In this document: positions 25,642-63,054 of the stretch, piece by piece
Position numbering within the stretch: position 1 is the first letter of the stretch
Layout: each line of letters opens with the position of its first letter
NCBI RefSeq assembly: GCF_965204195.1
Contig: NZ_OZ241975.1
Span: 1,401,184 to 1,465,183, forward strand
Reading direction: 5' to 3'
From: Candidatus Poriferisodalis sp.
Lineage (GTDB): Bacteria; Actinomycetota; Acidimicrobiia; Acidimicrobiales; Poriferisodalaceae
DNA: 64,000 bases
Notes under the pieces: generated by a model
Told to the model about the DNA's origin: nothing
The model's database searches: none
What the model saw: the letters and a program-made list of their open reading frames with translations, nothing else
Program-made: the position numbers and the translations under genes

Positions 25642-28600
25642 TCACGCAGGAAGCGGCATCTTCAAGAGTTCCGCGACGGCGTGCTCGATCTTGGGGCCGA
25701 GATCGCTCGACGCGAGGCTCTCTCTGACCCGGGAGCGCATTCTGCCGTGGGCCTTCATCTCCGGAATCTCGAGTTCTGCCACGAATCGCTCTGCTTCGGC
25801 GCCGAGAGATGCCAGATTGCGATGCAGGCGGTCGAGACTGTCGTAGAGCGGTATCGGCAGCTTCCAGAGGTGCGACCCGATGTGGCGGCCGCCTCCTTTT
25901 CCCGAAACCATGTACGGCTCAACGGCCTTGGTGACAGCCGCGCAGTTCAGGACAGCGCACAGATACTGGGCTTCTTCGACTGAACGCATCGGTGCCCAGT
26001 CGAGTTGATGCTCGACCAGCGCATATGGGGCAGTCACCCTGCACGCTGTGACGTGCATGCCCGAGACAGCGCATACGACTCGTGTTCCCGAGAGGGGGTA
26101 TTGCGACGAGAGCTTGCCGTAATGGTCCAACGACTCTTGCAAGCTCAGTGATGAGACGGCGTGCTCATCCCAGAGAGATGTCGCTGCCTGCCACCATCGT
26201 GCGAGGCCTTCATGAGCGTCGATATCCGCGTCGTCCAGCATCTTTCTTCCGTCGAATGGGAGCAGCGCTTCCATCGGCTGCCGTTGCATGAATGGAAGGA
26301 CCGACTCGCCCATCAGGAGAGGAAACACAAACTCCTGCTCCACTACTCCGCGTAGATCAGGCAGCTTCTTCCATGCATACTTGGCATATATCCCACGGTC
26401 CGAACGCACGGCCCGTCGGCCGGACCCGACGCCGAGCGGCGGTGCCACGTCTGGTTTGACGGTCGTCAAGAGACGTGGGTAAATGTTGGCCCCGTTTCGA
26501 AATATCGGCTTGTAGGGCGACGACGGCTGGGTTGCTTCGACAGGTTCGTCAACCTGAACAGTGCGCGAGAGCGCGGCGCGAACGGAATCCCAATCGGCGT
26601 TCGGGTTGTGCAGCTTGCCTGTCCACCGCTCGAACTGGGGAGTGAGCGTCTGGGCTTCGCGAGATCTGGTGCCGAACACGACACACGCTGTGCGAGGAAA
26701 AAAGGTATGACTGATGTCCGACAGCTCCCAAGGCATCCGCCAGTTGATGCACACGTTGTCACTCTTCCCGACCGCGTACCGACCTGCGCGAAGCCCGTCG
26801 GACTGTGCCCTCGTTCGCACTCCGGCCGGCATGACAAACGCCAGGTGCCCGTCGACTCGCAGGTATTGCTCCACAGCCCTGACGACGAACAAGTCGGCGA
26901 GGTCCTGATGCGTCGCGACATGCCTGCCCGACCACAGACCACGTGTGGTCGACATTTCGCGAAAAATCATCTTCATGGACTCTGTCATGTGCCGGTACGC
27001 CAGCCACGGCGGATTGCCAATCAAGACATCGCAACGATTGTCCGGCAGCGCCAGCCAAGCGGGGCGGGCCAGATTGCGGACGTAGTAGCCCCAGATGTGG
27101 TCGCGGCGCTCATCGTGAAGGCGGCACATGGCCTCGAAGGTGGCGCGCACGGTGACGGCATCGGCTTCAGAGAGGCCATGTCGATTCGCAATCGAAGCAA
27201 AGACCGTCGGACGAGAGCTGGGTTCGCGTGTCGTGGCCGTCTCCGCAAGGTCAGAAACGAGCGCGTCGAACCGATCGGCATCGGCCAGGAGGGCCTGAGG
27301 GAATCGAAGCTGGTCGGCAAACAGGTGTGCACCGTCACTCGTGGTCACGTTGAGCGTCTCTGACGCAAAGATGTCGCCGCGTTGGCCCCATTGGAGCGCG
27401 TCGCCGAGAAACACGGGAATTCTCAACGGCCCTCTGTCGGACGCTGACAGCCGCTCGGCGCCGATTGCGAGCAGATAGGTGACGCGGGCCAGAGTCACCG
27501 CCACCGGATGCACGTCAACGCCGAAGACCCGCCGAGCAACTCCTGCCACAGCATCACCGTTCGCGATGCCCGCGCGCTCGGCAGCGGCCAGGTAGCCGCG
27601 CACTGCGTGAAAGAGGAACGTGCCAGACCCGCAGCTGGGATCCAAGACCGTCATCTGGATGGGGTCGGTGACGACTTCTTGGATCATCGCTTCGGCCAGA
27701 AAGTCAGGCGTGTAGTACTCACCGAGCCGCTTTCGGGTGTCAACGCCGATGACCGACTCGTAGATCGTCTTCATGACGTCATGCGTTACGTTCGACCAAT
27801 CGAACTGTTGCAGGCGTCTCGCGAGAGCTGCGACCCACACGGTTCCAGGCTCGCCACAGTTGAGGGGCCAGTCGAAGAAATCGTGATCCACGACTCCGTG
27901 TATCTGTGACTGCTGTCCGAACAGCTCGCCCCGCAGCAGGCTGGCCGGCGTGAGCTGGGTGATCGGATAGCCGAGCACTGCGTGTGCCACGCACTCGGCG
28001 GTGGCAACGAGCAGGGTGTGCTCGACGAAGAGATCGTCTTCGTTGTCGCCGAATTGCGTACCGAGCGCCGTCGTCAGGAGCTTTGCCCAAAGTTCTCGCT
28101 TGATCTGGATTTCTGGATTGTCTCGGTTCGCTTCGTACATCCCGCGCAGTGCAGCGCGTTCGAGTTCATGCCCGGGGCTGTCGGCACCGAGCCGACTTGA
28201 GAGCGCCTCACGGGTCGGAATGACCTCGTGCTGCGTGGCCAGTACGGCGGCGAGCCACGTGATCAGTGGCTCGGGTTCCGGGGATGTGGGATCCACCTCG
28301 TGCACGGCCACCGGCCCGAGGCCGTCTTCGACGCGGTGGAAGAGGTGCCAGTCGCGGCCGTCCGTCACGATTCCGACGTAGCGCTGGCTGAGTTGGCGCT
28401 CGCGTTCGGCGACGTAGCCGCTCAACTGCGCAGTCGCATCTTCGAGCGACGCACCGCTGGCGAGCGATCTCTTGACCTCGATAACGGTTCGACCGATCTC
28501 GATGTCAATCCTGCGGCGGTCGCCGAGGGGGGCTTCCAAGGTCACATCGATGATGTCGTCGTCGGAAATGTTGAGTCCCGAGGCGATCAGCAGGAGGCGG

Positions 28601-28698
28601 ATGTCCGACTGGACGGTGGCCTCGGTCCGGCCTGGAGCGCTGCGGTCGCAGAGCCGGCCGACGACGGCCCCCAAGTCGACCGCGGCCTCTGGATTCAC
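25642..28698 (-). CDS. Single-polypeptide Type IIG/IIL-like restriction-modification enzyme (N-terminal PD-(D/E)xK nuclease, gamma-class N6-adenine methyltransferase, C-terminal specificity region)
   Basis: N-terminus RIDIEIGRTVIEVKR (D-x8-E-x-K, HSDR_N-like). Motif I VLDPSCGSGTFL followed by motif IV NPPW. About 400 aa of unassigned C-terminal sequence. Visibly AT-richer than its flanks. Confidence 0.75.
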   Translation of the reverse strand: MNPEAAVDLGAVVGRLCDRSAPGRTEATVQSDIRLLLIASGLNISDDDIIDVTLEAPLGDRRRIDIEIGRTVIEVKRSLASGASLEDATAQLSGYVAERERQLSQRYVGIVTDGRDWHLFHRVEDGLGPVAVHEVDPTSPEPEPLITWLAAVLATQHEVIPTREALSSRLGADSPGHELERAALRGMYEANRDNPEIQIKRELWAKLLTTALGTQFGDNEDDLFVEHTLLVATAECVAHAVLGYPITQLTPASLLRGELFGQQSQIHGVVDHDFFDWPLNCGEPGTVWVAALARRLQQFDWSNVTHDVMKTIYESVIGVDTRKRLGEYYTPDFLAEAMIQEVVTDPIQMTVLDPSCGSGTFLFHAVRGYLAAAERAGIANGDAVAGVARRVFGVDVHPVAVTLARVTYLLAIGAERLSASDRGPLRIPVFLGDALQWGQRGDIFASETLNVTTSDGAHLFADQLRFPQALLADADRFDALVSDLAETATTREPSSRPTVFASIANRHGLSEADAVTVRATFEAMCRLHDERRDHIWGYYVRNLARPAWLALPDNRCDVLIGNPPWLAYRHMTESMKMIFREMSTTRGLWSGRHVATHQDLADLFVVRAVEQYLRVDGHLAFVMPAGVRTRAQSDGLRAGRYAVGKSDNVCINWRMPWELSDISHTFFPRTACVVFGTRSREAQTLTPQFERWTGKLHNPNADWDSVRAALSRTVQVDEPVEATQPSSPYKPIFRNGANIYPRLLTTVKPDVAPPLGVGSGRRAVRSDRGIYAKYAWKKLPDLRGVVEQEFVFPLLMGESVLPFMQRQPMEALLPFDGRKMLDDADIDAHEGLARWWQAATSLWDEHAVSSLSLQESLDHYGKLSSQYPLSGTRVVCAVSGMHVTACRVTAPYALVEHQLDWAPMRSVEEAQYLCAVLNCAAVTKAVEPYMVSGKGGGRHIGSHLWKLPIPLYDSLDRLHRNLASLGAEAERFVAELEIPEMKAHGRMRSRVRESLASSDLGPKIEHAVAELLKMPLPA

Positions 28699-31878: not shown

Positions 31879-32739
31879 GTGACCCCAGAGGCACCCGACA
31901 CCGAACCGCTGTCGCCGGGCAGCCGGCTCGCAGAGGTCGTCGAGTTCTTCGGCGTGCAGGCCACCGACGACGAGTTGCGCTGGCTTCTGCCCATCTCGCC
32001 GAACGTTGCCAACTATCTCGGTGTGATGCACGGCGGCTGCGCGCTCGCGTCGGTCACTGCCGCTGCCGAGACATGGAGCGAACGGCCGGTTGCATCGGCT
32101 TCGGCGCAGTTCATGTCCCGTGTCCCTCTCGGTGGCAGCGCAGAGATCACGTTTGACATCGGGTCGGCCGGCAAGCGGATGACCCAGGTGCTCGCGCGGG
32201 TCGTCGATGCAGCCGACGGCAGCGTGCTGATGCTAGCGCTGCTGTCGCTGGGCGGTCGGCGGCTCGGCATCGACCAGGACTGGGTGCAGCCGCCGGATGT
32301 TCCGGCGCCGGAGGAGTTGGCGCGCCGTTCTGTGCCGGACAACGCCGTTCCATCGTTCAGCACAGAGGCCGACATCCGGTTTGCGCCCTACAGCGCCGGC
32401 GATCGCAGGATCCTCTGCTGGGCGCGACTCGCTGGCACGCTGGCGTCCACCCGCCAGGGTCTGATTGCGTTGGCGGACACGCTCGCAACGGGGATGCACC
32501 TGAGCCTCGGCCGCAAGTGGCGTGGCGCGAGCCTCGACAACACTGTGCGCATCGCAGGCGACGCCGACTGCGAATGGGTGCTACTCGACATCGAGACCGA
32601 CGGCTTCCACAACGCTGTCGGTCACGGCGTCGTGCGGATCTTCGCCCCCCATGGCGCTTTGCTGGCGACAGGGAATCAGTCATTCGCCGTGGCGCGGGTG
32701 GCCGGCCCCTCGAGGGCTTCCGGCTGTAGTCAGCACTAG
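31879..32739 (+). CDS. Acyl-CoA thioesterase-like (double hotdog) protein, paralogue 1
   Basis: GTG start. GVMHGGCALA and the C-terminal half resemble TesB-like/PaaI-like hotdog thioesterases. Tandem paralogue downstream. Confidence 0.65.
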   Translation: MTPEAPDTEPLSPGSRLAEVVEFFGVQATDDELRWLLPISPNVANYLGVMHGGCALASVTAAAETWSERPVASASAQFMSRVPLGGSAEITFDIGSAGKRMTQVLARVVDAADGSVLMLALLSLGGRRLGIDQDWVQPPDVPAPEELARRSVPDNAVPSFSTEADIRFAPYSAGDRRILCWARLAGTLASTRQGLIALADTLATGMHLSLGRKWRGASLDNTVRIAGDADCEWVLLDIETDGFHNAVGHGVVRIFAPHGALLATGNQSFAVARVAGPSRASGCSQH

Positions 32740-32750
32740 CTTTCGGCTCC

Positions 32751-33602
32751 GTGAGCGCCGAAGCTGCCACAAGCGACGCTGCGCCGCAGGACCCGCACGT
32801 CGGCGAGGTGATCGAGTGGTTCGGCCTCCAGTCGACGGCCGAAGAGCTGCGTTGGCTGCTGCCGGTGACCTACGACGTGGCTGGTGCCACCGGCACGTTG
32901 CATGGCGGGTGTGCGCTCGCGGCCGCCGTGGCGGCTCTCGAGAGCGTCACCGGCCGGCCCATGGCCGCTGCATCGGCGCAATACCTGGCGCGGCTGCCGG
33001 TGGGCGGCTGTGCGGCCGTCGCTCTCGACATCGGCGCCAGCGGCAACCGGATGACCCAAGCCTCCGCTGAGATCACCGATGCCGCCGACGGCCGGGTCAT
33101 TCTGCGTGCGCTCGTGTCCCTCGGCGGTCGGCAGCTAGGCATCGACCAGACGTGGACGACCGCACCCGACGTGCCGCCGCCGGACTCGTGCGAGCCCCGC
33201 GGCTCGACGTCGATCGAGGGCCGCTCGTTCACCGACCACGCAGACATCAGGCTCGCCGGGCAGCAGCCGGGCGAGCGCCACGTCCGGTACTGGGCGCGCC
33301 TCGACGACACGCTGGCATCGACCGGGCCGGGCCTGACGGCGCTGGCCGACCTGCTGCCGAGCGGCATGCGCGTCAGCCTCGATGCCGGATTCAGGGGATC
33401 CAGCCTCGACAACACGGTGCGGATCTCCGGCGAAGCCGAGAGCGAATGGGTGCTCCTCGACATCGAATCCGACGCCGTCCACAACGCCATCGGCAACGGC
33501 ATCGTTCGCATCTATGCCTCCGACGGGGGGCTGCTGGCGACCGGCACCCAGTCGTTCGCGATCACCCGCATCACTGGTCCCCTGGGCTCGCCGCAGCAAT
33601 GA
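32751..33602 (+). CDS. Acyl-CoA thioesterase-like (double hotdog) protein, paralogue 2
   Basis: Collinear with 31879..32739 along its whole length (GTLHGGCALA, SLDNTVRI, WVLLDIE). Similar upstream context (TAGCTT(T)CGGC..GTGA). Confidence 0.65.
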   Translation: MSAEAATSDAAPQDPHVGEVIEWFGLQSTAEELRWLLPVTYDVAGATGTLHGGCALAAAVAALESVTGRPMAAASAQYLARLPVGGCAAVALDIGASGNRMTQASAEITDAADGRVILRALVSLGGRQLGIDQTWTTAPDVPPPDSCEPRGSTSIEGRSFTDHADIRLAGQQPGERHVRYWARLDDTLASTGPGLTALADLLPSGMRVSLDAGFRGSSLDNTVRISGEAESEWVLLDIESDAVHNAIGNGIVRIYASDGGLLATGTQSFAITRITGPLGSPQQ

Positions 33603-35053: not shown

Positions 35054-36592
35054 TCACGGCGATGGCGGATGTGCGCCGCCGGCCCAAACACCGCGTACGC
35101 CTGTGCCCTCGGGCCGGTGGACAGCCCAATCGACTTGGAAGATACCCCCGAAATGGGTCGCGTTCTCGACAGCGGGAATGGGATAGCGGGTTGTTTCGAT
35201 GCGGCGCACCTGGTCGACGTCGGGCGTGCCGTCGGGGAAGTAGTAGACCCCGTACAGGGGGATACGAATCACGTCGACAATGGCGCCGGGTTCGTCTGAG
35301 GAGCCGAGCGCGGCGTAGCCGCGCAGGTCGGGGATGGCGACGAGGTGTGCTACATCGGCGAGGCTGGGATGGCTCAGTCTTTGGGCCACTTTGTTCGGCA
35401 AGCTGTAGTGGGCACGCGCGTATCCGTGCAGGATGAGGACCTGCTCTTCGGGAGGGAACGACTCGTACATCTCGGCCGGGAAGCCGCTATTGCGAAGCCC
35501 GTGGGGCCAGTGCCACCGCAACCCCGGAGATGCTATGACGAACCAAGCGCGCGAGACGTCGATCTCGGGTGAGAACTCCGCCTCGACGATGAACTGGGCG
35601 GGTTCTGGCGGTTCGCCGGTCCAGCCTTCGATCTCGAAAGGCGCGATCTCGCCGGGCTGGATCGACAGCGGCCAGTGCCACGTTCCGACGCTGACGCTGA
35701 CGCTGACGCTGTACGCCCACATGGTGCGTGACCAGTTGCGGACCAGGCCGCGCACCACCCCGTCGATGACCGACACCGAGCCGGGCTCCACCCGCAACTC
35801 CTCCACAGCCTGCTCGGCAACGGGCAGCACCACATCGCTGTGGAACGGGCTGTAGATGCCCAGCGGAAGTTCACCGTCGGGCAGGGAATGAGCAAGGCGT
35901 TCCTCGGCGGCTGCTTCTCTGCTCGCGATCGCTTCGCGTGCCTGTTCGGGCGTGTGGTACCAGCTGATGTTGTACACAGACCACAGCGCATAGCGCGGGT
36001 CGTAGTCGCCGGGCTGCGCGTCGGGATCGTCGCATCCCATCAGTCCCCGCTGCTGGATCATTCTCGGGATCCGCTCGCGGAACAGCAGCGTCGGCATCGA
36101 CCGCGGCCCTTCGAGACGGGCCTCGGCGAGCAGATCGTCCGGGTCGCACATGTCGAATACCCGGTTCAGCACCGGCTGACGGGCATGCTGGCCGACTCGG
36201 GAAGGACCATCGCGCAGCGGGCCGAGCGGCTCACCTTCAGCGGGAAGCACCCGCATGTCCTCAAGATCGGCCAACCGATCGGAGTCGAACGTCACGTACA
36301 TGTCAGTGAACCAGAACGGGTCGCCCTCTGCGAGGCTCAACCTGACCGTCGCATCAGCCGCAGCGGGGCGGTCACTCGCAACGCTTGGCTGTGTCGTCTC
36401 GGCAGCGAGCAGCCCGTCGACGGTCGTCGGTGTGGCTGATGCCGCCGCCGCCGCTGTCGCCGCCGGCCGAATCGCCGGCGCCGCGCTGTCCGCTGCTGGC
36501 AGCTCATGCAAGGCCGCGCCGCTGCATCCCTGCGCGAGCAGCAGGCCGGCACACATCACCCAGCCCACAACGCAGCAGGGCGTGCGCCTCAT
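35054..36592 (-). CDS. Secreted/lipoprotein-like protein, uncharacterised family (partner B2)
   Basis: From ATG 36592. Signal-like MRRTPCCVVGWVMCAGLLLAQGC. Shares the VVRGLVRNWSR...W.WPLSIQPGEIAPFEIEGW block with 36859..38298 and 60474..61811. Confidence 0.65.
   Translation of the reverse strand: MRRTPCCVVGWVMCAGLLLAQGCSGAALHELPAADSAAPAIRPAATAAAAASATPTTVDGLLAAETTQPSVASDRPAAADATVRLSLAEGDPFWFTDMYVTFDSDRLADLEDMRVLPAEGEPLGPLRDGPSRVGQHARQPVLNRVFDMCDPDDLLAEARLEGPRSMPTLLFRERIPRMIQQRGLMGCDDPDAQPGDYDPRYALWSVYNISWYHTPEQAREAIASREAAAEERLAHSLPDGELPLGIYSPFHSDVVLPVAEQAVEELRVEPGSVSVIDGVVRGLVRNWSRTMWAYSVSVSVSVGTWHWPLSIQPGEIAPFEIEGWTGEPPEPAQFIVEAEFSPEIDVSRAWFVIASPGLRWHWPHGLRNSGFPAEMYESFPPEEQVLILHGYARAHYSLPNKVAQRLSHPSLADVAHLVAIPDLRGYAALGSSDEPGAIVDVIRIPLYGVYYFPDGTPDVDQVRRIETTRYPIPAVENATHFGGIFQVDWAVHRPEGTGVRGVWAGGAHPPSP
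35687..35710. repeat. Hexanucleotide microsatellite (GACGCT)x4 inside a CDS (encodes SVSVSVSV)
   Basis: Direct reading of 35687..35710. The paralogues lack the repeat at the equivalent position. Confidence 0.9.
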
Positions 36593-36858
36593 TGCTCGCC
36601 CGGCGGCGGCTGCGGATTGTTCGGAAACTCCTTGGTGCGGCCGGTCCATCGGAGCGTGTCGATCGCACTGAGAAACCGACTGCTGTTGACGCTGGGCCAC
36701 GGCGATGCGCGCCGGTAGTTGAATGGCCGGTGCTTCTGAGTCCCGCACGCCTTCACATGGAGCTTGAGACCCGGGCGTCGTCTCTCTACTGGGGAATCCT
36801 TCTGAAACGGCTTTCTTCACTCCCCGGTTTCCTTTGGACCAACACTGTTCAAGATAGA

Positions 36859-52671: not shown

Positions 52672-53868
52672 CTAGCGCTCCGCCCGAGCGCGTGCGCCGC
52701 GACCGTCCCTGCGAACCGAGACGAGCTTGTCGGCGCGCAACTGGCCGCACGCGGCGTCGATCGACGTGCCGCGGTTCTGGCGCACGGTGGCGTTCACGCC
52801 AAGGGACGACAGCTCGGCTGCGAAATGCTCGATCCGCCCGGCCGGCGAGGGCTGGTGGCCGTATCCCGGTGTGGGATTCAGCGGAATGAGGTTGACGTGG
52901 GCCGCCAGCGGACGCGCATACGCAGCAAGCTCGGCAGCGTCGCGGTCGGTGTCGTTGATGCCGTCGATCATCGCCCACTCGAGGCTGATGCGCCGTCGCT
53001 TGGCGCGGCGATAGTCGGCCAGCGAGCGCGCCAGGTCGCGCAGCGGGTACGTGCGATTGATGGGCGCAATCCGGTTGCGCAGTCGGTCGTTGGCGGCATG
53101 CAGCGACACTGCCAGGTTGACCGGCAGCGCCTCCGCTGCAAGGCGCGTGATGCCGGGAATGACTCCGACGGTCGACACCGTGATGTGCCTGGCACCGATG
53201 CCCATGTCGCCGTGGAACCGCTCCACCGCTGCCCACACCGCGTCATAGTTGGCGAGCGGCTCGCCCATGCCCATGAACACGATATTGATGGCTCTGCCGG
53301 GGGCGGCTTCGCTGTTGATGGCTCGGCCGGGGGCGGCTTCGATGTTGATGGCTCGGCCGGGGGCGGCTTCGATGTTGATGGCTCGGCCGGGGGCGGCTTC
53401 GCTGTCGATGGCTCGTTCGTCTGGGCCTGCCTCCTGCAGCGTGCTCAGCACTTGCTCGACGATCTCGCCCACGCTCAGGTTGCGGTCGAATCCCACTTGG
53501 CCGGTGGCGCAGAAACTGCACGCCATCGCGCAGCCGGCCTGGCTGCTGATGCACAGCGTCGTCCGGTTCCGGTAGCGCATCAACACCGACTCCACCAGGT
53601 GACCATCACGCAGCGACCACAAGTGCTTCGTGGTGGTGCCCCGGTCTGCGGACTGGGTGCGGACGAGCGCCAGCGCAGGCGGCAGCAGCTCGCCGATGGC
53701 CTGTCGCAGGCTCTTGGGCACATTGGTGAGCTCAGACAGCGGACGGCGCTGGCGGTACAGGCCGTTCCACACCTGGTCCAGCCGGTATGTGGGCTCGCCG
53801 TCGAGCAGTTCCCCGAGTTCCGCCCGGCTCAGATCGCCGAGCGAAGGATCGGCGCCGGGGGCTGTCAC
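52672..53868 (-). CDS. rlmN: 23S rRNA (adenine2503-C2)/tRNA methyltransferase, radical SAM, with in-frame repeat insertion
   Basis: CAMACSFCATG radical-SAM cluster, MGMGEPLAN, C-terminal catalytic Cys region. Full-length RlmN similarity. Confidence 0.9.
   Translation of the reverse strand: MTAPGADPSLGDLSRAELGELLDGEPTYRLDQVWNGLYRQRRPLSELTNVPKSLRQAIGELLPPALALVRTQSADRGTTTKHLWSLRDGHLVESVLMRYRNRTTLCISSQAGCAMACSFCATGQVGFDRNLSVGEIVEQVLSTLQEAGPDERAIDSEAAPGRAINIEAAPGRAINIEAAPGRAINSEAAPGRAINIVFMGMGEPLANYDAVWAAVERFHGDMGIGARHITVSTVGVIPGITRLAAEALPVNLAVSLHAANDRLRNRIAPINRTYPLRDLARSLADYRRAKRRRISLEWAMIDGINDTDRDAAELAAYARPLAAHVNLIPLNPTPGYGHQPSPAGRIEHFAAELSSLGVNATVRQNRGTSIDAACGQLRADKLVSVRRDGRGARARAER
53285..53417. 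repeat. 30-bp in-frame tandem repeat, 4.4 copies, inside rlmN (encodes EAAPGRAIN[IS] units)
   Basis: Units 53285..53314, 53315..53344, 53345..53374 and 53375..53404, plus a partial unit. Units differ at 1-2 positions. Confidence 0.9.
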
Positions 53869-55865: not shown

Positions 55866-55936
55866 TCGCAGGGCACGTCGCGACAACAAAGACAGTCGGC
55901 GTGGTGACGGCTTCGGCTGGGCAGGCGTCGGGTGGG

Positions 55937-57340
55937 GGGCCTGTCAGGAATTTTGTGTATCGGGCGTGATCTGAGGGTCCGCAGCCGGGGGCTGTGGGCT
56001 GGAGAGGATCATGTCTGTGACTGATCATGACATGCCGGCTGTGCCGGCGAGCGAGGCTGCCGGCGAGGCGGCGATGGCCGACTGGGCCGAGCAGCTGGTG
56101 GCCCAGGCCCGCGCTGAGGGCGTGGAGCTGACCGGTGACGGTGGCCTGTTGACCGGGCTGGTGCGCCAGGTGCTCCAGACCGGTCTCGAGGTCGAGATGA
56201 CCGAGCATCTGGGCTATGAGCGTCACGCTCCTGAGGGCCGCGGCACCCCGAACTCGCGCAACGGGTCGACGCCCAAGCGGGTGACGACCGAGATCGGCGA
56301 GGTCGACCTGGCGGTGCCGCGTGACCGGGCGGGCACCTTCGAGCCGACCACGGTGCCCAAGCACCGGCGCCGTCTCGACGGGCTGTCGGGCAACGTGATC
56401 AGCCTCTATGCGAAGGGGCTCACCACCGGGGAGATCCAGGACCATCTAGCAGAGATCTACGACACCTCGGTGAGCCGGGAGACGATCTCGAAGATCACCG
56501 ACGAGATCGTCGCCGACATGGCGGTGTGGCAGAACCGGCCCCTTGAGCCGGTCTACGCCGTGCTGCTGATCGACGCGATCGTCATCAAGGTCCGCGACTC
56601 CCAGGTCGCCAACCGGCCCGTCTATGTCGCCATCGGCGTCGATCTCGCCGGCGAGCGCGACGTGCTGGGCCTGTGGCTGGGCCCCGCAGGCGGCGAGGGC
56701 GCCAAGCAGTGGGCAGCGATGCTGACCGAGCTGAGAAACCGAGGCCTCGCTGACGCGTTGATCGTGTGCTGCGACGGGCTGCGGGGCCTGCCCGAGTCGA
56801 TCCGGGCGACCTGGCCCCAGGCCACGGTGCAGACCTGCGTGGTGCACATGGTCCGCAACAGCCTCCGCTACGCCTCCAAACGGCACTGGGGGCCGATCAC
56901 CAAGGCAATGCGGGAGATCTACACGTCGCCCACCGCCGAGGCCGCCGAGGCACGCTTCGAGAGCTTCGCCGAGGACTGGGAGCACACCTACCCCGCCATG
57001 ATCGGCTCCTGGCGGCAGGCCTGGGACGAATTCGTGCCGTTCCTGGAGTTCCCCGCTGAGCTGCGCAGAGTCGTCTACACCACCAACGCCATCGAGAGCC
57101 TCAACGCCAGATTCCGACGGGCCGTGCGCCATCGAGGCCACTTCCCCAACGAGCAGGCCGCGATGAAGGTCCTCTACCTTGTCGCCAACGCCAGACGCAA
57201 AAACCGCAGCAACCTGACCGGAAAGACCAACGGCTGGAAGACCATCCTGAACACCCTGACCGTCCACTACGGCGACCGGATCGCCGACCACATCCGATGA
57301 ACACCATCACGGCCGGTTACACAAAAAATCTGACAGTCCC
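55937..57340 (+). mobile_element. IS256-family insertion sequence, copy 2 (1404 bp)
   Basis: Same ends and same encoded transposase as copy 1. Flanking 8-mers (CGGGTGGG / CTGCACCG) do not match, so there is no target-site duplication. Confidence 0.9.
56011..57300 (+). CDS. IS256-family (mutator-type) transposase
   Basis: 429-aa ORF identical to 39763..41052. Confidence 0.95.
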   Translation: MSVTDHDMPAVPASEAAGEAAMADWAEQLVAQARAEGVELTGDGGLLTGLVRQVLQTGLEVEMTEHLGYERHAPEGRGTPNSRNGSTPKRVTTEIGEVDLAVPRDRAGTFEPTTVPKHRRRLDGLSGNVISLYAKGLTTGEIQDHLAEIYDTSVSRETISKITDEIVADMAVWQNRPLEPVYAVLLIDAIVIKVRDSQVANRPVYVAIGVDLAGERDVLGLWLGPAGGEGAKQWAAMLTELRNRGLADALIVCCDGLRGLPESIRATWPQATVQTCVVHMVRNSLRYASKRHWGPITKAMREIYTSPTAEAAEARFESFAEDWEHTYPAMIGSWRQAWDEFVPFLEFPAELRRVVYTTNAIESLNARFRRAVRHRGHFPNEQAAMKVLYLVANARRKNRSNLTGKTNGWKTILNTLTVHYGDRIADHIR

Positions 57341-60300
57341 CTGCACCGCGGACGGGCGCGCCGACGGAACCGAAGAAGTCGATCTGGCCGTGGTGGTGCC
57401 GCGGGTGACCTCGGTGACGGTCACCGCGACCTCGGGCGGGTCGTGTGCCGTGTCGTCGTCGCCGCTGCCTGCGGGCGCGGACGCGGCGTACGGGTGCACG
57501 GCGACGCGCGGCGCCGATCTGGTGGTGTCGGTCGCGGCGGACGCAAACGTCAACGGGCCGTCGCTGGGATGGGACGCCAGCGGCGCGGTGCGCGTTGTGC
57601 ACAGCGCACAAGCCCGGCGTACTGTTCCGCTGATCGCGCCGGGAGGATCGCTGAACGGCTGGCGGCGCACCGGCACCGCGACGCTGAGCTGCACCGCCGG
57701 CGGCGCTGCGACGGTCACGACAGCCCTGCCGGGCGCGGCCGACTATGTGACCCGTCTCGATGTCGCCTGCGGGCAGCAGGTGCGCATCGGCGGTCTCGAC
57801 GACACGGTTGCTGCGGGCACTGCGACGGTGGCCGTGTCGGACACGTTCGCGGTCACGCCCGCCGCCGCGCAGTGCACCGCGACAGCCACCGCGGGCACGC
57901 CGGTCGTGTCGGCTGGTGTGGGCGGGGTGCGCGCTGTGCAGTTGAGTGTCGGTGTGGGGGCGTCTGCTGTGGTGACGGTCACGTGCACCCACAGCGGCCA
58001 CGACCCCGCCACGGCGACAGCGACGTTCGCGGCCGCCGCAGCAGGCGGCTGCGGGGATCCGCTGGGAACGCTGAGCGTCGGCAGCGTGACGCGCAGCGGC
58101 ACGATCGCCGCCGATACGGCGTGCACCTCGCCTCAGCGTGTGCGCGACGGCGGCGACGCCAAGCGGTACTGGGCGCGCCGTCACACCTTCACGCTGGCCG
58201 CCCCGACGAAGATCACCATCGACGCCGGCTCGCCGACACGACGCGGCCTCGACGCCTATGTGGTGCTGCTGGAAGGCCACAGCAGCGACGGCACCGGCAC
58301 CGTGGCAGGCCGCGACAACAACTCAGGGCCCCGCCGCGACGCCCGCCTGGCCGCACTGGTGCTGCCCGCAGGCGACTACACCATCGAGGTCACCACCGCC
58401 AACAAACGCCGCACCGGCAACTACCGGCTCCAGGTCACCACAGCGGCCGCGTCCGCGGCATGCACCGACGACCTAGGCACGCTGGCCGCGGGCCGCTACA
58501 CACGCACCGGCACCATCACCGACACCTGCGTGTCCACACGCCGCGGCACCCCCACAGGCCGACCCGGGGCGCGCTGGCACACCTTCACCCTCGACGCCCC
58601 CGCCTGGGTCGACATCGACCTCGCCAAAACAACCGGCAGCCCCCTGGACCCCTACCTGGCGCTCATCGGCACCGACAACGGCACACCCACCACCATCGAA
58701 CAAGACGACAACAGCGGCACCGGCAACACAGCACACATACAAGGCCGGTATCTCGAAGCCGGCACCTACACCATCGAAACCACCGGCACAGCTGCGACCG
58801 GCACCACCGCCGCCGGCGACTACACCCTCACCGTCACCGTGCCCATCCACGGCCTCGCCCAGTCATACGACGCCACCGTCGACGAGCAAACCACCATCAA
58901 CTTCACCTACTGGCCCACCAACGCAAGAATCGACGCACAGTCGGCGGAACTACTGACAGAACCAGCGGGACGAAATGGAAAGGGATCGGTCACCGCTACG
59001 CCGACGGTCGTGAAACAGCACTCGGTCTCGGTGTTGTTGACCACCAGTTCGGCTGCGAACGGCGAAACTTCTTCTAGGTTTTATCAGCGCAGTTCCTCGC
59101 CTTCGGCGACGTCCACCAGGGTGTTCCCTTCAGGACTTGGCGCTGGCTGTCCGGATGGCAAAGTACTGAGTGAGGTCAATGGGATCCTGTGCGTGAATCC
59201 TAGGACTCAACCGCTGCCAGCGAAGCTTCATGAGGTGGTGCCCGATCCAAGCAGCGGTGTCAAATACCGGGGTCCGTACCTAGTGACGCCGGGTGCCCTT
59301 AGAGGTATCAGCCACGCATCTGCGCGGGCGCTCAATCCGTACGGCACGACTTGCGGCATCACCGTACATGAGCTGACGGCGCTTCTTTTGGGTATCGGAT
59401 TCCGGGAAATACCCAACAAGGTCTGGGTTGACACGAATGAGAACGGCGATGACGACGGCCCGGTCGACGACAACGGCAAGGAGTTCGAACGTGAGAACGC
59501 CCGTTACGACGCGAGATCGCTGATGACGCTGTCGCGCAAAGACCACAAATGGACGCCTGTCGGCGCAGGTGAAGACAATTCGCGGCTGTACTCGAACGAC
59601 TCGCTTACCGATGGCCCATCGCGGGCGTTCTGGCACCCCGGTGTGGGAATGTGGCAGATCGATAAGTTCAGTTCGACAGACCTGAATCACGGCCAGCGGG
59701 CATCCACTCGGTTCGGGGCTCTCCGGGTCGCCCAAGTGTTACTCAACGCGTATTGCGGGCCGTCATCAGCGCCGCTCCCGGAGCCTTCGCTCAAGGAGTT
59801 GACCAATCTGATGTCCAAACAGTGGCACGCGTGTAGGCACCTCGGTGAGGAGAACCTCTGCTGGATAACGAAGAAGAACCTGATGCTCCACAACGATGAT
59901 CTGTTCGTGCGGGTCAGCGCCAATGCGGACGATGACAGCACCATCGGCGGTGCCTTAGCCCGGAATTGCAGATGGAATACCCAAGACGGTCGGTCGCCTA
60001 CTGCCCCTCTTGCGTGCTACTTCTACGACACGGCACATCCGGAAGGAGCCGTGCATAACAGCTTGCCATACGGGCATAAGTCCAAAGCGGCCCGTGAGGA
60101 CTGGATGGACAAGAGCAGTCCGTATGCGGCACCGTTTGTTTCTCTGAATTACCAAAAGGGTAGGTTTGCCGTTTTTCCGAAGTCGTTGCTGCCGGGTTCA
60201 ACCAAAACGCTGATCAAGCGGGTTCCCCTGAACCCTCGTCCTGGCAGAGATGCTACGACGGAGAAGATGTTCCAAGTTCGCCGAATAACGCACACGACAT

Positions 60301-60464
60301 GGCACGAGAACGATCATTTCGACGGGCTCCAACTGGAGATGCTGATCTGTATCCGTCGTGCGCGTTCCTATTTCCCGTTGTGCGATTGGGTCAGTGTCAA
60401 TGCCGACTCAGGATCGGTGGGTGGCAGTTTTGGCACACGTATCGCTCCCCAAAGAGGCCGCTGA
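57341..60464 (+). CDS. Large PPC-domain protein A, 5'-truncated by IS copy 2: Ig-like Thr/Ala-rich region, two pre-peptidase C-terminal (PPC) domains, unassigned ~440-aa C-terminal domain
   Basis: Track ORF 57297..60464 starts at an IS-borne ATG. PPC pattern HTFTL..ITID..LDAYVVLL..DN..LPAGDYTIEVT..GNYRLQV occurs twice. The C-terminal domain is shared with 38351..39722. Confidence 0.75.
57894..58945. repeat. Dispersed repeat copy 1 (PPC-domain region), paired with 61911..62962
   Basis: Offset 4017 nt. No differences seen from 57894 to 58670 (first mismatch 58671 A vs 62688 G). Increasingly diverged after about 58785. Confidence 0.85.
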
Positions 60465-60473
60465 GGCTGCCAC

Positions 60474-61811
60474 ATGTTCTTTCGTCGGCGTTCCTTCCTG
60501 TCCGTCGTTGCCGCGGCCACGGTCGTGGCGGGCGGGCTGTGCTTATGGTTTGTCGTGCCTCGTGCTAAGACGGTCGAGACGCCAGATTCAGCTCCCATCA
60601 AGACTGATCTGCCCTCAATGATCTTCGATGACCGAAGTCGGTGGCGGCTGACGCCAAGTACCGGTTCGCTTGCACCGGGAGAAATCGACGGCACGAGAGC
60701 AGGGATCGCATGGACAGACGCTACCGGGCCCCTCAGGGCAACGACCTTCACGGTGCTCAGCGAGGCCATCGGCGAGATCCTCGACCTGTGCGTCACGGAA
60801 GATGCCGTTGCGGCCTTCTCGGGTGCCCGCGATATGCCTGCGGAGTCCGACATCGTCCAAGTCGTCACAGAGACTCAATACGCCTTGGGCTGCCGTGGCT
60901 CTGGCCCGGTCGTGATGAAGGGCCGCTACGCATATGTCCCGCCGTTCGGCGGGGAGCTTCAGTTCTTCGAGAGTCGGCACCAGGCCGTCATCTATGGCGA
61001 GGATCTTCAACGCCGCCTAGGCGTCGGTTGGCACGAGAATCCGTCGATTGGCTCGCCGTTGGGGTTCCACAGCGGAACCATGGGAACGGCAAGCTACGGC
61101 ACCGGCGTAACGGCGGGTGCAGAAGATCTGCGCGTTATCCCCGGATCGGTGAGCGCCAACGCAGGAGTCTTGCGTGGCTTAGTCCGCAACCGGTCGGCAA
61201 CCCACTTCGCGTATCGGGTTGAGGTTGCTGTTGGTGACCTAGCGTGGGAGTGGCCGTTGTCGGTGCAACCTGGCGAACTGGCACCTTTCGAGATTCAGGG
61301 GTGGAGATCCGACGAGATTCCACAGATGACAGAACTCGTCGTCTCTGCGGAGATGTCGACTGACGTGGACCTGTCGCGGCAATTCCAGTTCCACGAGATG
61401 TGGCAGCGCGGTGTCATAGCGAGGCAGGATTTCGCGACCTACTTGCCGCGCAGCGTGATCGCCGAGTTCCCAGCCGAGACCGAGGTAGCCACGTTCCTGA
61501 CCGCGAACGATGTAGTCGCCTCATCGCACCCAAGCCTCGCGGAACCAACAAGGAACTTGGAGACGTTTCCGGTAGCGGCATATGTCGCTTGGGTTCGCAG
61601 CGACGGCAGCATCGCTGATATCGACCAGCTCATTCTCTCTGAATACGACGATTTCGTCGATTCGGATGGCCACTCGAGGATACGTCCCTTCGAGGTCCAC
61701 CTCTACTCCAGAGCCGTCCATGCTGGCACCGTCAACCTCGCGTTTGCGGCGGACCCACGCGACCCCTTCCTTGATGGCTACCTGCTGTGGATCGGCGGCA
61801 TCCACGAGTGA
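60474..61811 (+). CDS. Secreted/membrane-anchored protein, uncharacterised family (partner A)
   Basis: N-terminal hydrophobic anchor SFLSVVAAATVVAGGLCLWFVV. Shares the GVLRGLVRNRS..FAYR...WEWPLSVQPGELAPFEIQGW block with 35054..36592 and 36859..38298. Confidence 0.7.
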   Translation: MFFRRRSFLSVVAAATVVAGGLCLWFVVPRAKTVETPDSAPIKTDLPSMIFDDRSRWRLTPSTGSLAPGEIDGTRAGIAWTDATGPLRATTFTVLSEAIGEILDLCVTEDAVAAFSGARDMPAESDIVQVVTETQYALGCRGSGPVVMKGRYAYVPPFGGELQFFESRHQAVIYGEDLQRRLGVGWHENPSIGSPLGFHSGTMGTASYGTGVTAGAEDLRVIPGSVSANAGVLRGLVRNRSATHFAYRVEVAVGDLAWEWPLSVQPGELAPFEIQGWRSDEIPQMTELVVSAEMSTDVDLSRQFQFHEMWQRGVIARQDFATYLPRSVIAEFPAETEVATFLTANDVVASSHPSLAEPTRNLETFPVAAYVAWVRSDGSIADIDQLILSEYDDFVDSDGHSRIRPFEVHLYSRAVHAGTVNLAFAADPRDPFLDGYLLWIGGIHE

Positions 61812-61910
61812 GTCTGTGGTAGGTCGATGGGCAGTCTGCACTTGCGTCGGCAGATCGACGCTGTCGTACAGCACCGGGCTGGCGTGGCCGCGCTGAGCCG
61901 CACCGGAGGC

Positions 61911-62962
61911 GGCACGCCGGTCGTGTCGGCTGGTGTGGGCGGGGTGCGCGCTGTGCAGTTGAGTGTCGGTGTGGGGGCGTCTGCTGTGGTGACGGTCACG
62001 TGCACCCACAGCGGCCACGACCCCGCCACGGCGACAGCGACGTTCGCGGCCGCCGCAGCAGGCGGCTGCGGGGATCCGCTGGGAACGCTGAGCGTCGGCA
62101 GCGTGACGCGCAGCGGCACGATCGCCGCCGATACGGCGTGCACCTCGCCTCAGCGTGTGCGCGACGGCGGCGACGCCAAGCGGTACTGGGCGCGCCGTCA
62201 CACCTTCACGCTGGCCGCCCCGACGAAGATCACCATCGACGCCGGCTCGCCGACACGACGCGGCCTCGACGCCTATGTGGTGCTGCTGGAAGGCCACAGC
62301 AGCGACGGCACCGGCACCGTGGCAGGCCGCGACAACAACTCAGGGCCCCGCCGCGACGCCCGCCTGGCCGCACTGGTGCTGCCCGCAGGCGACTACACCA
62401 TCGAGGTCACCACCGCCAACAAACGCCGCACCGGCAACTACCGGCTCCAGGTCACCACAGCGGCCGCGTCCGCGGCATGCACCGACGACCTAGGCACGCT
62501 GGCCGCGGGCCGCTACACACGCACCGGCACCATCACCGACACCTGCGTGTCCACACGCCGCGGCACCCCCACAGGCCGACCCGGGGCGCGCTGGCACACC
62601 TTCACCCTCGACGCCCCCGCCTGGGTCGACATCGACCTCGCCAAAACAACCGGCAGCCCCCTGGACCCCTACCTGGCGCTCATCGGCGCCGACAACGGCA
62701 CACCCACCACCATCGAGCAAGACGACAACAGCGGCACCGGCAACACAGCACACATACAAGGCCGGTATCTCGAAGCCGGCACCTACACCATCGAAACCAC
62801 CGCCGCCACACCCACCGGCACCACCAGCACCGGGGCATACACCCTCACCGTCACCATCCCCATCCACGGCCTCCCCCAAACCATCAACGCCACCGTCGAC
62901 GAGCAAACCACCATCAACTTCACCTACTGGCCCACCAACGCCAGAATCGACGCACGATCAGA
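61911..62962. repeat. Dispersed repeat copy 2 (PPC-domain region), paired with 57894..58945
   Basis: See copy 1. Alternative-frame ORFs (58138..58476 vs 62155..62493) are also identical, which supports nucleotide identity. Confidence 0.85.
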
Positions 62963-63046
62963 AGACCTCGCGTTTGCGTTTCGGGCAACGAATGGAGTGT
63001 CGGTGCTCGCGCCGTCAATCACGGCACCAGACCGTCACACAATCGC

Positions 63047-63054
63047 GTTGACTA
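63047..63054. repeat. Target-site duplication half (GTTGACTA) next to IRL of IS copy 3
   Basis: Matches the 8-mer flanking IRR of IS copy 1 (39715..39722, reverse complement). Confidence 0.8.

Follow-up and report, generated by a model that had tools for sequence, protein, structure and literature searches.

WapA/WapI of Bacillus subtilis and Streptococcus is a Sec-dependent, wall-associated polymorphic toxin in which Rhs/YD repeats carry nuclease tips and the immunity protein is cytoplasmic. Other toxins are aimed at the envelope and have exported immunity proteins, as in pesticin/Pim, colicin M/Cmi, the Tse/Tsi and Tae/Tai pairs of type VI secretion systems and TelC/TipC of type VII secretion systems. 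How does the locus described here compare with them? It lies in a high-GC stretch of 64,000 nucleotides (below, the window; GC fraction 0.67) from the genome of Candidatus Poriferisodalis sp., which belongs to the Acidimicrobiia and is associated with sponges. Two genes for large carrier proteins with PPC-type repeats, geneA and geneB, each end in a C-terminal domain (CtD) of a new family, and they are accompanied by three genes for exported partner proteins (partnerA, partnerB1 and partnerB2). We read this arrangement, with a probability of about 0.55, as an effector/immunity-like system of the polymorphic kind, in which a wall-polymer enzyme specific to the lineage gave rise to the effector.

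Comparison with described systems

As in WapA/WapI, the setting is a monoderm bacterium, and a large wall-associated repeat protein with a Sec signal ends in a variable C-terminal domain and is followed by a downstream partner. WapA acts in the cytoplasm of the target cell; in the present locus the CtD is predicted to act outside the membrane, where the partner is found as well. In this the locus would resemble pesticin/Pim, colicin M/Cmi, Tse/Tsi, Tae/Tai and TelC/TipC, which share an extracytoplasmic wall or lipid-linked target and immunity on the outer face of the membrane; these differ from it in delivery route and in having known enzyme folds, and none matches the CtD or the partner in sequence or structure.

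The defining pattern of polymorphic toxin systems is that of Zhang et al. 2012 (PMC3482391), where a lipoprotein type is listed once among the immunity families. All of its testable features are found at loci of the present kind: a constant carrier with a variable tail, an adjacent partner, orphan cassettes with homology arms, and strain-specific tails. Polymorphic toxins in general, CdiA-CT/CdiI and the Rhs orphan arrays among them, have in common with this locus a conserved carrier, a variable C-terminal domain and a downstream cognate partner. Shared as well are downstream orphan cassettes with a homology stretch, GC-poor tips beside a GC-rich core, extra solitary immunity-type genes, and cassette exchange between strains. 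The differences are also clear. The known trafficking domains (TPS/FHA, Rhs/YD, LXG and others) are missing and export is apparently by Sec; the C-terminal domain is large (about 400 aa), predicted to be disulfide-bonded and outside the known toxin families; and the partner, at 445–600 aa, is exported and membrane-tethered by its sequence signals, not small and cytoplasmic. The logic of the system is of a known kind; neither domain family has a description in the libraries and literature searched. A literature search on Poriferisodalis, or on polymorphic toxins in sponge Acidimicrobiia, found nothing.

Anatomy of the cassettes

The geneA remnant (57341-60464, + strand) comprises the C-terminal 1040 codons of a secreted carrier of about 2270 aa. 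An open reading frame (ORF) can be drawn from 57297, and its first 15 codons are the end of an insertion sequence (IS), not part of geneA. Homology arm A (57894-58900, +) contains both PPC-type beta-sandwich repeats, at about 58050-58460 and 58572-58778, and the junction that precedes the CtD. CtD-A follows (59148-60464, +), and after a gap of 10 nt comes partnerA (60474-61811, +). This exported protein of 445 aa has a signal-anchor at its N-terminus and a beta-sandwich-like conserved core, and it is 100% identical to an NCBI hypothetical protein from Ca. Poriferisodalis. An earlier, sequence-only reading of the window had placed the geneA part and partnerA at these coordinates, which were reproduced.

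The 5' part of geneB (61827-63054, +) is an orphan cassette. It opens 15 nt past the partnerA stop codon with 28 unique codons and no signal peptide (the start in the orthologous locus L009 matches), enters arm B at 61911 and runs into an IS copy. Its 3' part, CtD-B (38351-39722, − strand), lies beside another copy of the same element; only a 329-aa fragment of it (P0027) is present in the NCBI annotation. After 53 nt comes partnerB1 (36859-38298, −; 479 aa), which has the lipoprotein-like signal LLLTLGYSC, and then partnerB2 (35054-36862, −), a solitary extra partner whose likely ATG at 36592 would give 512 aa with a lipobox-like start (MRRTPCC..LLLAQGC). The ancestral order geneA-partnerA-geneB-partnerB1-partnerB2, proposed earlier from the window alone, is borne out by an 8-bp duplication described below and by the uninterrupted order of L009. 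Both N-termini had been said to be missing: geneA indeed lacks about 1229 codons relative to its 2272-aa L009 orthologue, and geneB begins at the duplication junction. Both carriers are inactivated by IS copies in this genome, and the three partner genes are intact.

The two arms are 100% nucleotide-identical from 57894 to about 58690 (equivalent to 61911-62707), that is, over about 800 nt, with a sharp left edge and a start-to-start spacing of 4017 bp. Past about 58690 the identity falls through 92% and 85% to 63% per 100 nt (63% at 58900-59000) and is 35-60% beyond 59000. The sequence-only reading had described near-identical carrier parts, C-terminal domains about half identical and partners more diverged still, and each of these statements holds. 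CtD-A and CtD-B share 46% of their amino acids, and the partners share 35%, 30% and 30%, with one common block, VLRGLVRNWSR..WPLSVQPGE.APFEI.GW. The cassettes are also AT-richer, as had been claimed: the GC fraction is 0.72 in the carrier, 0.58 in CtD-A, 0.61 in partnerA, 0.56 in CtD-B and 0.54 in partnerB1.

What does the carrier consist of? PPC (PF04151) scores above the Pfam gathering threshold of 25.9 bits in both genes (38.7 bits in the geneB 5' part, 30.9 in geneA), and it is the sole Pfam domain in the 2272-aa geneA and 1191-aa geneB products of L009 and in P0026 and P0051. In the same four sequences Pfam detects no TPS/FHA, Rhs/YD or LXG/T7SS trafficking or repeat domain. A conserved Cys-loop, C-x(4-14)-N-G-x-L-C-V/I, stands in front of the fused-type CtDs and reads CPDGKVLSEVNGILCV in geneA (window 59148-59195). 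It recurs at the equivalent position in P0001, P0026, L005 and L008 and is absent from stand-alone CtDs; it may serve as a linker or be processed.

Cassette exchange between genomes

L009 is uninterrupted: geneA (2272 aa), partnerA, geneB (1191 aa), two partners and an OpuAC-like gene follow one another, with tad/CpaB genes upstream. In the window, a tad/Flp-pilus-type locus (41127-45310, +), in which ATPase-like genes follow a SAF/CpaB-like gene (41128-42276), abuts the IS copy beside CtD-B. Since the same tad locus stands directly upstream of the intact L009 geneA, this is the former site of the lost 5' half of the window's geneA. The missing part itself (about 3.7 kb, about 1229 codons) was searched for in the window and is absent.

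The similarity between the two loci changes abruptly along their length. CtD-A and partnerA differ from their L009 counterparts by 7 mismatches in 3 kb, or 99.8% identity (window 58941-61940 against L009 9794-12793). The carrier has 17-20 mismatches per 200 nt (about 92% identity), and the flanking tad genes are 70-74% identical (window 41417-45310 against L009 76-3994). The near-identity of CtD-A and partnerA, set against the carrier and the flanks, therefore shows that the cassette moved as a unit, and it indicates a recent transfer between diverged Poriferisodalis genomes. The breakpoints are at the edges of the variable region, and CtD plus partner is the unit that moves between genomes.

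The geneB arm diverges from L009 by about 8%; beyond 62605 the sequence is unrelated, and so are the geneB tail and its partners. L009's own two arms are 100% identical over 696 nt. The arms, identical within each genome and about 8% apart between genomes, are thus kept alike genome by genome, by gene conversion.

Do CtD and partner also change together over longer distances? Across 25 cassettes their identities rise and fall together (Spearman 0.59, a value reached in 0 of 2000 permutations), with the partners more diverged than the CtDs (median identity 28% against 37%). Linked inheritance alone could give such co-variation, and it is therefore taken as a sign of cassette integrity, not of interaction.

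Occurrence in other genomes

A scan of one genome per species in GTDB, in which partners were found with hidden Markov models built here, returned 56 CtD loci. In 47 of them the CtD has a gene of the partner family no more than 1.5 kb away on the same strand, so the co-occurrence that the sequence-only reading had predicted is conserved, and the absence of linkage that would have spoken against it is clearly not what is seen. The partner also adjoins the CtD in the metagenome loci L002-L006 and L008. Of the nine loci with no partner call, four are cut by contig ends and five are truly partner-less. A third type of partner upstream of these five was considered and ruled out, the genes there being MoeZ-like or flippases. 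The partner-less subclade (L007; L036, L043, L045, L051, L062), some members of which have FG-GAP repeats, has YfhO, flippase, MoeZ-like and glycosyltransferase genes as neighbours; in L007 the CtD sits among YfhO, GT2 and GT4 genes.

Nearly all 56 loci are in Acidimicrobiia (Poriferisodalis, Poriferisocius, Aldehydirespirator, Microthrixaceae, Iamiaceae and Ilumatobacter). CtDs with an upstream partner were also seen in a contig binned as Bifidobacterium breve (L031), in Pirellulaceae (L022), Anaerolineae (L044 and L055) and Haloechinothrix (L042); these could be rare transfers or mis-binned contigs.

The fused type, found mostly in sponge-associated genera, has the CtD as the C-terminus of a 600-2300-aa protein with the partner downstream (21 of the GTDB loci) and is often arrayed. 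The first CtD gene of an array has a Sec-type signal in L010, L014, L016, L017, L024 and L029, and the later CtD ORFs have no signal, are truncated at the N-terminus and start inside the carrier repeats. Orphan cassettes occur also in L010, L013, L014 and L015. L005 has one CtD gene and four partner genes; the partner gene closest to partnerA is immediately preceded by what remains of a CtD-A-like end (62% over 43 aa). The Poriferisodalis chromosome NZ_OZ240249.1 holds four loci (L008, L010, L014 and L015) with 16 CtD and 21 partner segments, a large, decaying investment in the cassette system. Many segments of its arrays are frameshifted or truncated, and one array adjoins an IS256-type transposase gene. 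A gene for an OpuAC-like substrate-binding protein lies beside or inside arrays at three independent loci (L001 2-1156, L008 11554-12873 and L009 19446-20798).

The C-terminal domain

Neither the window copies of the CtD nor any of the 37 aligned members has a significant match in Pfam, NCBIfam, PHROGs or the sequences of the PDB; for the 37 members Pfam gives no family even at E<=10, and the NCBIfam matches of CtD and partner are below threshold. PDB sequence and profile searches with three alignments (A1, A2 and A3) gave chance matches only. The statement that neither family could be named therefore stands, for the CtD as for the window partners. Relatives are nonetheless plentiful: a word-index search finds only 7, but a HMMER profile search finds 453 clusters (at 50% identity) with E<=1e-3, of which 287 have E<=1e-30. 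Every source name recorded for them is "hypothetical protein".

The domain has about 400 aa and the invariant columns (CtD-A numbering) E87, R130, D132, G165, G167, D172, W226, C229, C238, G267, G268, C274, C290 and P325. CtD-A carries the motifs SLMTLSR.D and AFWHPGVGMWQID, for which the family forms are SPMTLSR.D and RAFWHPGVGMWQ.D. Stand-alone members bear signal peptides, and together with the four invariant cysteines this places the CtD outside the cytoplasm. A first AlphaFold2 model from a 9-sequence alignment was too weak to use (pLDDT 57.8, Foldseek empty). The model from the 37-sequence alignment (pLDDT 76.5, pTM 0.81) has two lobes, one helical (44-245) and one beta-rich (250-416); in the helical lobe, E87 is the last residue of helix 73-87.

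Is this a lysozyme-like enzyme? The lead came from the motif E...GVGMWQ. The CtD shares with the lysozyme-like GH23 SLT enzymes an invariant Glu with which a helix ends (E87, in the model), and its downstream G-x-G-hydrophobic-W-Q-x-D, giving E...G.G.WQ.D, recalls their E...GLMQ signature. It differs from them in the extra beta-rich lobe and the four conserved cysteines, and its similarity to them is significant neither in sequence nor in profile nor in structure. Among the 50 top-ranked Foldseek matches, which are weak, about 10 are GH19, MltE or MltF, at probabilities <=0.04.

The partner family and its stand-alone relatives

The window's three partners have no Pfam, NCBIfam, PHROGs or PDB match. 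The family core is the block given above plus an SHPS motif, with 10 invariant columns across 21 sequences that average 24% identity. By regular expression, most partner homologues have a lipobox of the form L/V-x-G/A-C (LWGC, VAAC, VTAC, LGAC); partnerA has a signal-anchor, and partnerB1 and partnerB2 have non-canonical boxes, by regular expression only. The partner is thus, to judge from these signals, exported and membrane-tethered.

In free-living lineages the CtD is of a stand-alone type, in which a signal peptide is followed by the CtD and often by SLH, FG-GAP or fn3 domains. In 26 of the 56 loci there is a single CtD with a partner-type gene immediately upstream, the stop and start codons often overlapping. 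A flippase of the Wzx/SpoVB kind is found upstream of such pairs in 19 of 23 loci, Wzm/Wzt ABC exporter genes in 9-10 of the 23, and GT2/GT4 glycosyltransferase genes occur too. The upstream partner-type protein (about 330 aa) is homologous to the partner core (hhalign probability 94.5%, E 8e-8) and reaches the cut-off of the NCBIfam FxLYD family NF038353 (23.1 bits against 23, E 5e-5). The window's three partners themselves do not match that family and are linked to it through the hhalign comparison, so that the likeness to FxLYD domain proteins belongs to the distant upstream-type relatives and not directly to the window partners. No function for the FxLYD domain was found in the literature.

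What would the pair do in such a setting? Because the same pair is found in single copy within the cell-wall polysaccharide loci of free-living relatives, the CtD probably acts on an envelope glycan. This argues as well for a housekeeping envelope module: the CtD would trim, ligate or remodel the cell's own wall glycopolymer, the FxLYD-like tethered partner would be a regulator, anchor or chaperone, and the arrays would have grown by duplication of paralogues suited to different polymers, not as weapons. For the ancestral pair at least, an envelope function without antagonism has to be taken seriously as a rival, since the pair is ancient and single-copy in wall-polysaccharide export loci, and the fusion of CtDs to wall-binding SLH domains and the strongly conserved partner core speak in the same direction. 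As an account of the arrays it is rather unlikely. It leaves unexplained why truncated orphan cassettes carry identical arms, why the geneB tail and its partners are replaced between genomes, and why a 99.8% identical cassette sits amid flanks of 70-74% identity; nor does it account for the low GC of the cassettes, for the solitary partner genes or for the arrays having left the glycan loci.

A proposed effector-immunity system and other possible functions at the surface

A polymorphic effector-immunity system had been proposed in the sequence-only reading from the window alone, and the proposal survives with qualifications. Linkage, Sec signals on the first genes, truncated orphans, homogenised arms, strain-specific geneB tails, a transferred cassette, solitary partners and tethered, exported partners are all in its favour. 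In its intact form the system would consist of a giant secreted carrier, with a signal peptide, Cys-rich repeats and Ig-like and PPC beta-sandwich repeats, ending in a disulfide-bonded CtD, and of a membrane-tethered exported partner encoded directly downstream of the carrier gene. Orphan CtD-plus-partner cassettes would follow; these lack a signal peptide, and their first 0.8-1.1 kb form an arm with the same sequence as in the main gene. By homologous recombination, the direct arms could then allow the displayed CtD and its partner to be swapped together, and the same cassettes also pass between genomes. The CtD is a predicted enzyme acting on the cell-envelope glycan of neighbours (peptidoglycan or a secondary wall polymer), and the cognate partner would neutralise it at the membrane surface of the producer; export would apparently be by plain Sec. 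An envelope glycan is the likely target because the CtD is extracytoplasmic, the partner is tethered, and the ancestral setting is one of wall polysaccharides.

Several observations weigh against this effector-immunity reading. With both carriers disrupted, nothing exportable is left in the window, and the locus cannot work as proposed at present; that the partner genes were kept after the loss of the effectors fits a conflict system without proving one. On the geneA-type carrier N-terminus (L009, P0051) the signal peptide is not clear. The single-copy pair with its partner upstream is near-universal in free-living Acidimicrobiia and looks like a housekeeping module, an ancient one, and the partner core is unusually conserved for an immunity protein. 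For the enzyme itself, Foldseek with the CtD model gave nothing significant (best E 0.7 in the PDB and 0.5 in BFVD), and hhalign of the CtD against an SLT profile built from five E. coli enzymes (Slt70, MltC, MltD, MltE and MltF) was also not significant (probability 0.5%, E 0.13); the lysozyme/SLT idea is therefore carried as a hypothesis only.

Could the variable tip instead belong to a surface fibre? The carrier would then be a PPC/Ig-repeat adhesin or fibril whose CtD docks on its cognate partner lipoprotein, and the silent cassettes would let the surface vary in an antigenic or phase-type manner, under pressure from phages or from recognition by the sponge. A conserved 5' arm, a variable 3' cassette and silent downstream copies do resemble cassette-based surface variation; the codon differences in the carrier between the window and L009 are mostly non-synonymous (56 against 37 synonymous), and both CtD and partner are extracytoplasmic. 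Stand-alone CtDs, though, bear their own SLH wall anchors at the opposite end, which makes the CtD look like a functional head and not an anchor. Its invariant acidic residues and Trp-rich motif suggest a catalytic or sugar-binding site, and there is no obvious gain from varying an internal docking pair. We consider the fibre improbable. Least probable of all is an enzyme directed at the host or its matrix, degrading sponge or other eukaryotic glycans for nutrition or colonisation with the partner as an inhibitor that shields the producer's surface, since Sec secretion and an expansion largely in the sponge-associated Poriferisodalis, Poriferisocius and Aldehydirespirator have to be set against an ancestral context in the bacterial wall-polysaccharide loci of non-symbiotic lineages and against the lack of any need for a cognate, co-diversifying membrane-bound partner in each cassette.

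The effector-immunity reading can be carried one step further. An ancient, largely Acidimicrobiia-specific envelope module, made up of a predicted wall-glycopolymer enzyme of new fold and an FxLYD-like, membrane-tethered partner that would control it, may have been recruited by sponge symbionts as a Sec-dependent polymorphic weapon, its cassettes recombining inside a genome and passing between co-resident species. We advance this fuller history tentatively, as a possibility with the odds somewhat against it.

Insertion sequences and rearrangements

The region had been called IS-ridden, and the window does hold three copies of one 1404-bp IS256-family element: IS1 (39723-41126, −), whose outer flank (41127) belongs to the sequence upstream of tad/CpaB, IS2 (55937-57340, +), which truncates geneA, and IS3 (from 63055 to beyond 64000, +), cut by the window end. 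The transposase matches Transposase_mut (PF00872, E 6e-123). The ends, GGGCCTGTCAGG and CTGACAGTCCC, together with the Mutator-type transposase and an 8-bp target-site duplication, place the element in the IS256 family.

The two copies of the duplication, GTTGACTA, are found at the left flank of IS3 (63047-63054, +) and at the right flank of IS1 (39715-39722, −). When the IS and one copy of GTTGACTA are removed, 61827-63054 joined to 39714-38351 gives an intact 863-codon geneB ORF. GeneB was therefore hit by one insertion, and its halves were parted later by an inversion between IS copies. Chance duplication and assembly artefact were considered as explanations and are ruled out by the target-site duplication, the intact reconstructed ORF and the agreement of the independent L009 assembly. 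The flanks of IS2 (55929-55936 and 57341-57348) are CGGGTGGG and CTGCACCG; they are unmatched, with no target duplication, and IS2 is therefore a recombinant that implies at least one more rearrangement. The outer flank of IS1 (41127-41134) is TCAAGGTT. More than one IS-mediated rearrangement must have taken place, and at least one further IS copy must lie outside the window; two successive inversions between inverted IS copies would yield the present layout.

Other features of the window

Three further features were seen away from the cassettes. A 30-nt in-frame tandem repeat (53280-53415; 4.5 copies, 94% matches) encodes (AINIEAAPGR)n within ORF 52672-53868 (−), a radical-SAM, rlmN-like gene; such an insertion is unusual in a housekeeping enzyme. 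At 25642-28698 (−), in a stretch with a GC fraction of 0.60-0.63, lies a gene for a 1018-aa Eco57I/MmeI-like fused restriction-modification enzyme (N6_Mtase plus Eco57I). Tandem paralogues of about 285 aa each are encoded at 31879-32739 and 32751-33602 (+), with a 158-nt stretch that is 79% identical (repeat family D3).

Implications

If the effector-immunity reading is true, bacterial conflict systems would gain two new families, one of effector domains and one of exported immunity proteins. The setting is unusual: an uncultivated sponge-associated actinobacterial lineage, from which no comparable system is known to have been described and in which Sec export and PPC-repeat carriers would serve, apparently with no dedicated secretion machine. 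The cassette, near-identical on backbones that have diverged, is a marker of recent exchange of genes between sponge symbionts. The CtD is also a lead to a predicted enzyme, so far unknown, of Acidimicrobiia wall-polymer biology, and, if the reading is true, the locus would show, as is seldom possible, how a housekeeping enzyme of the envelope and its partner came to serve as an exchangeable weapon.

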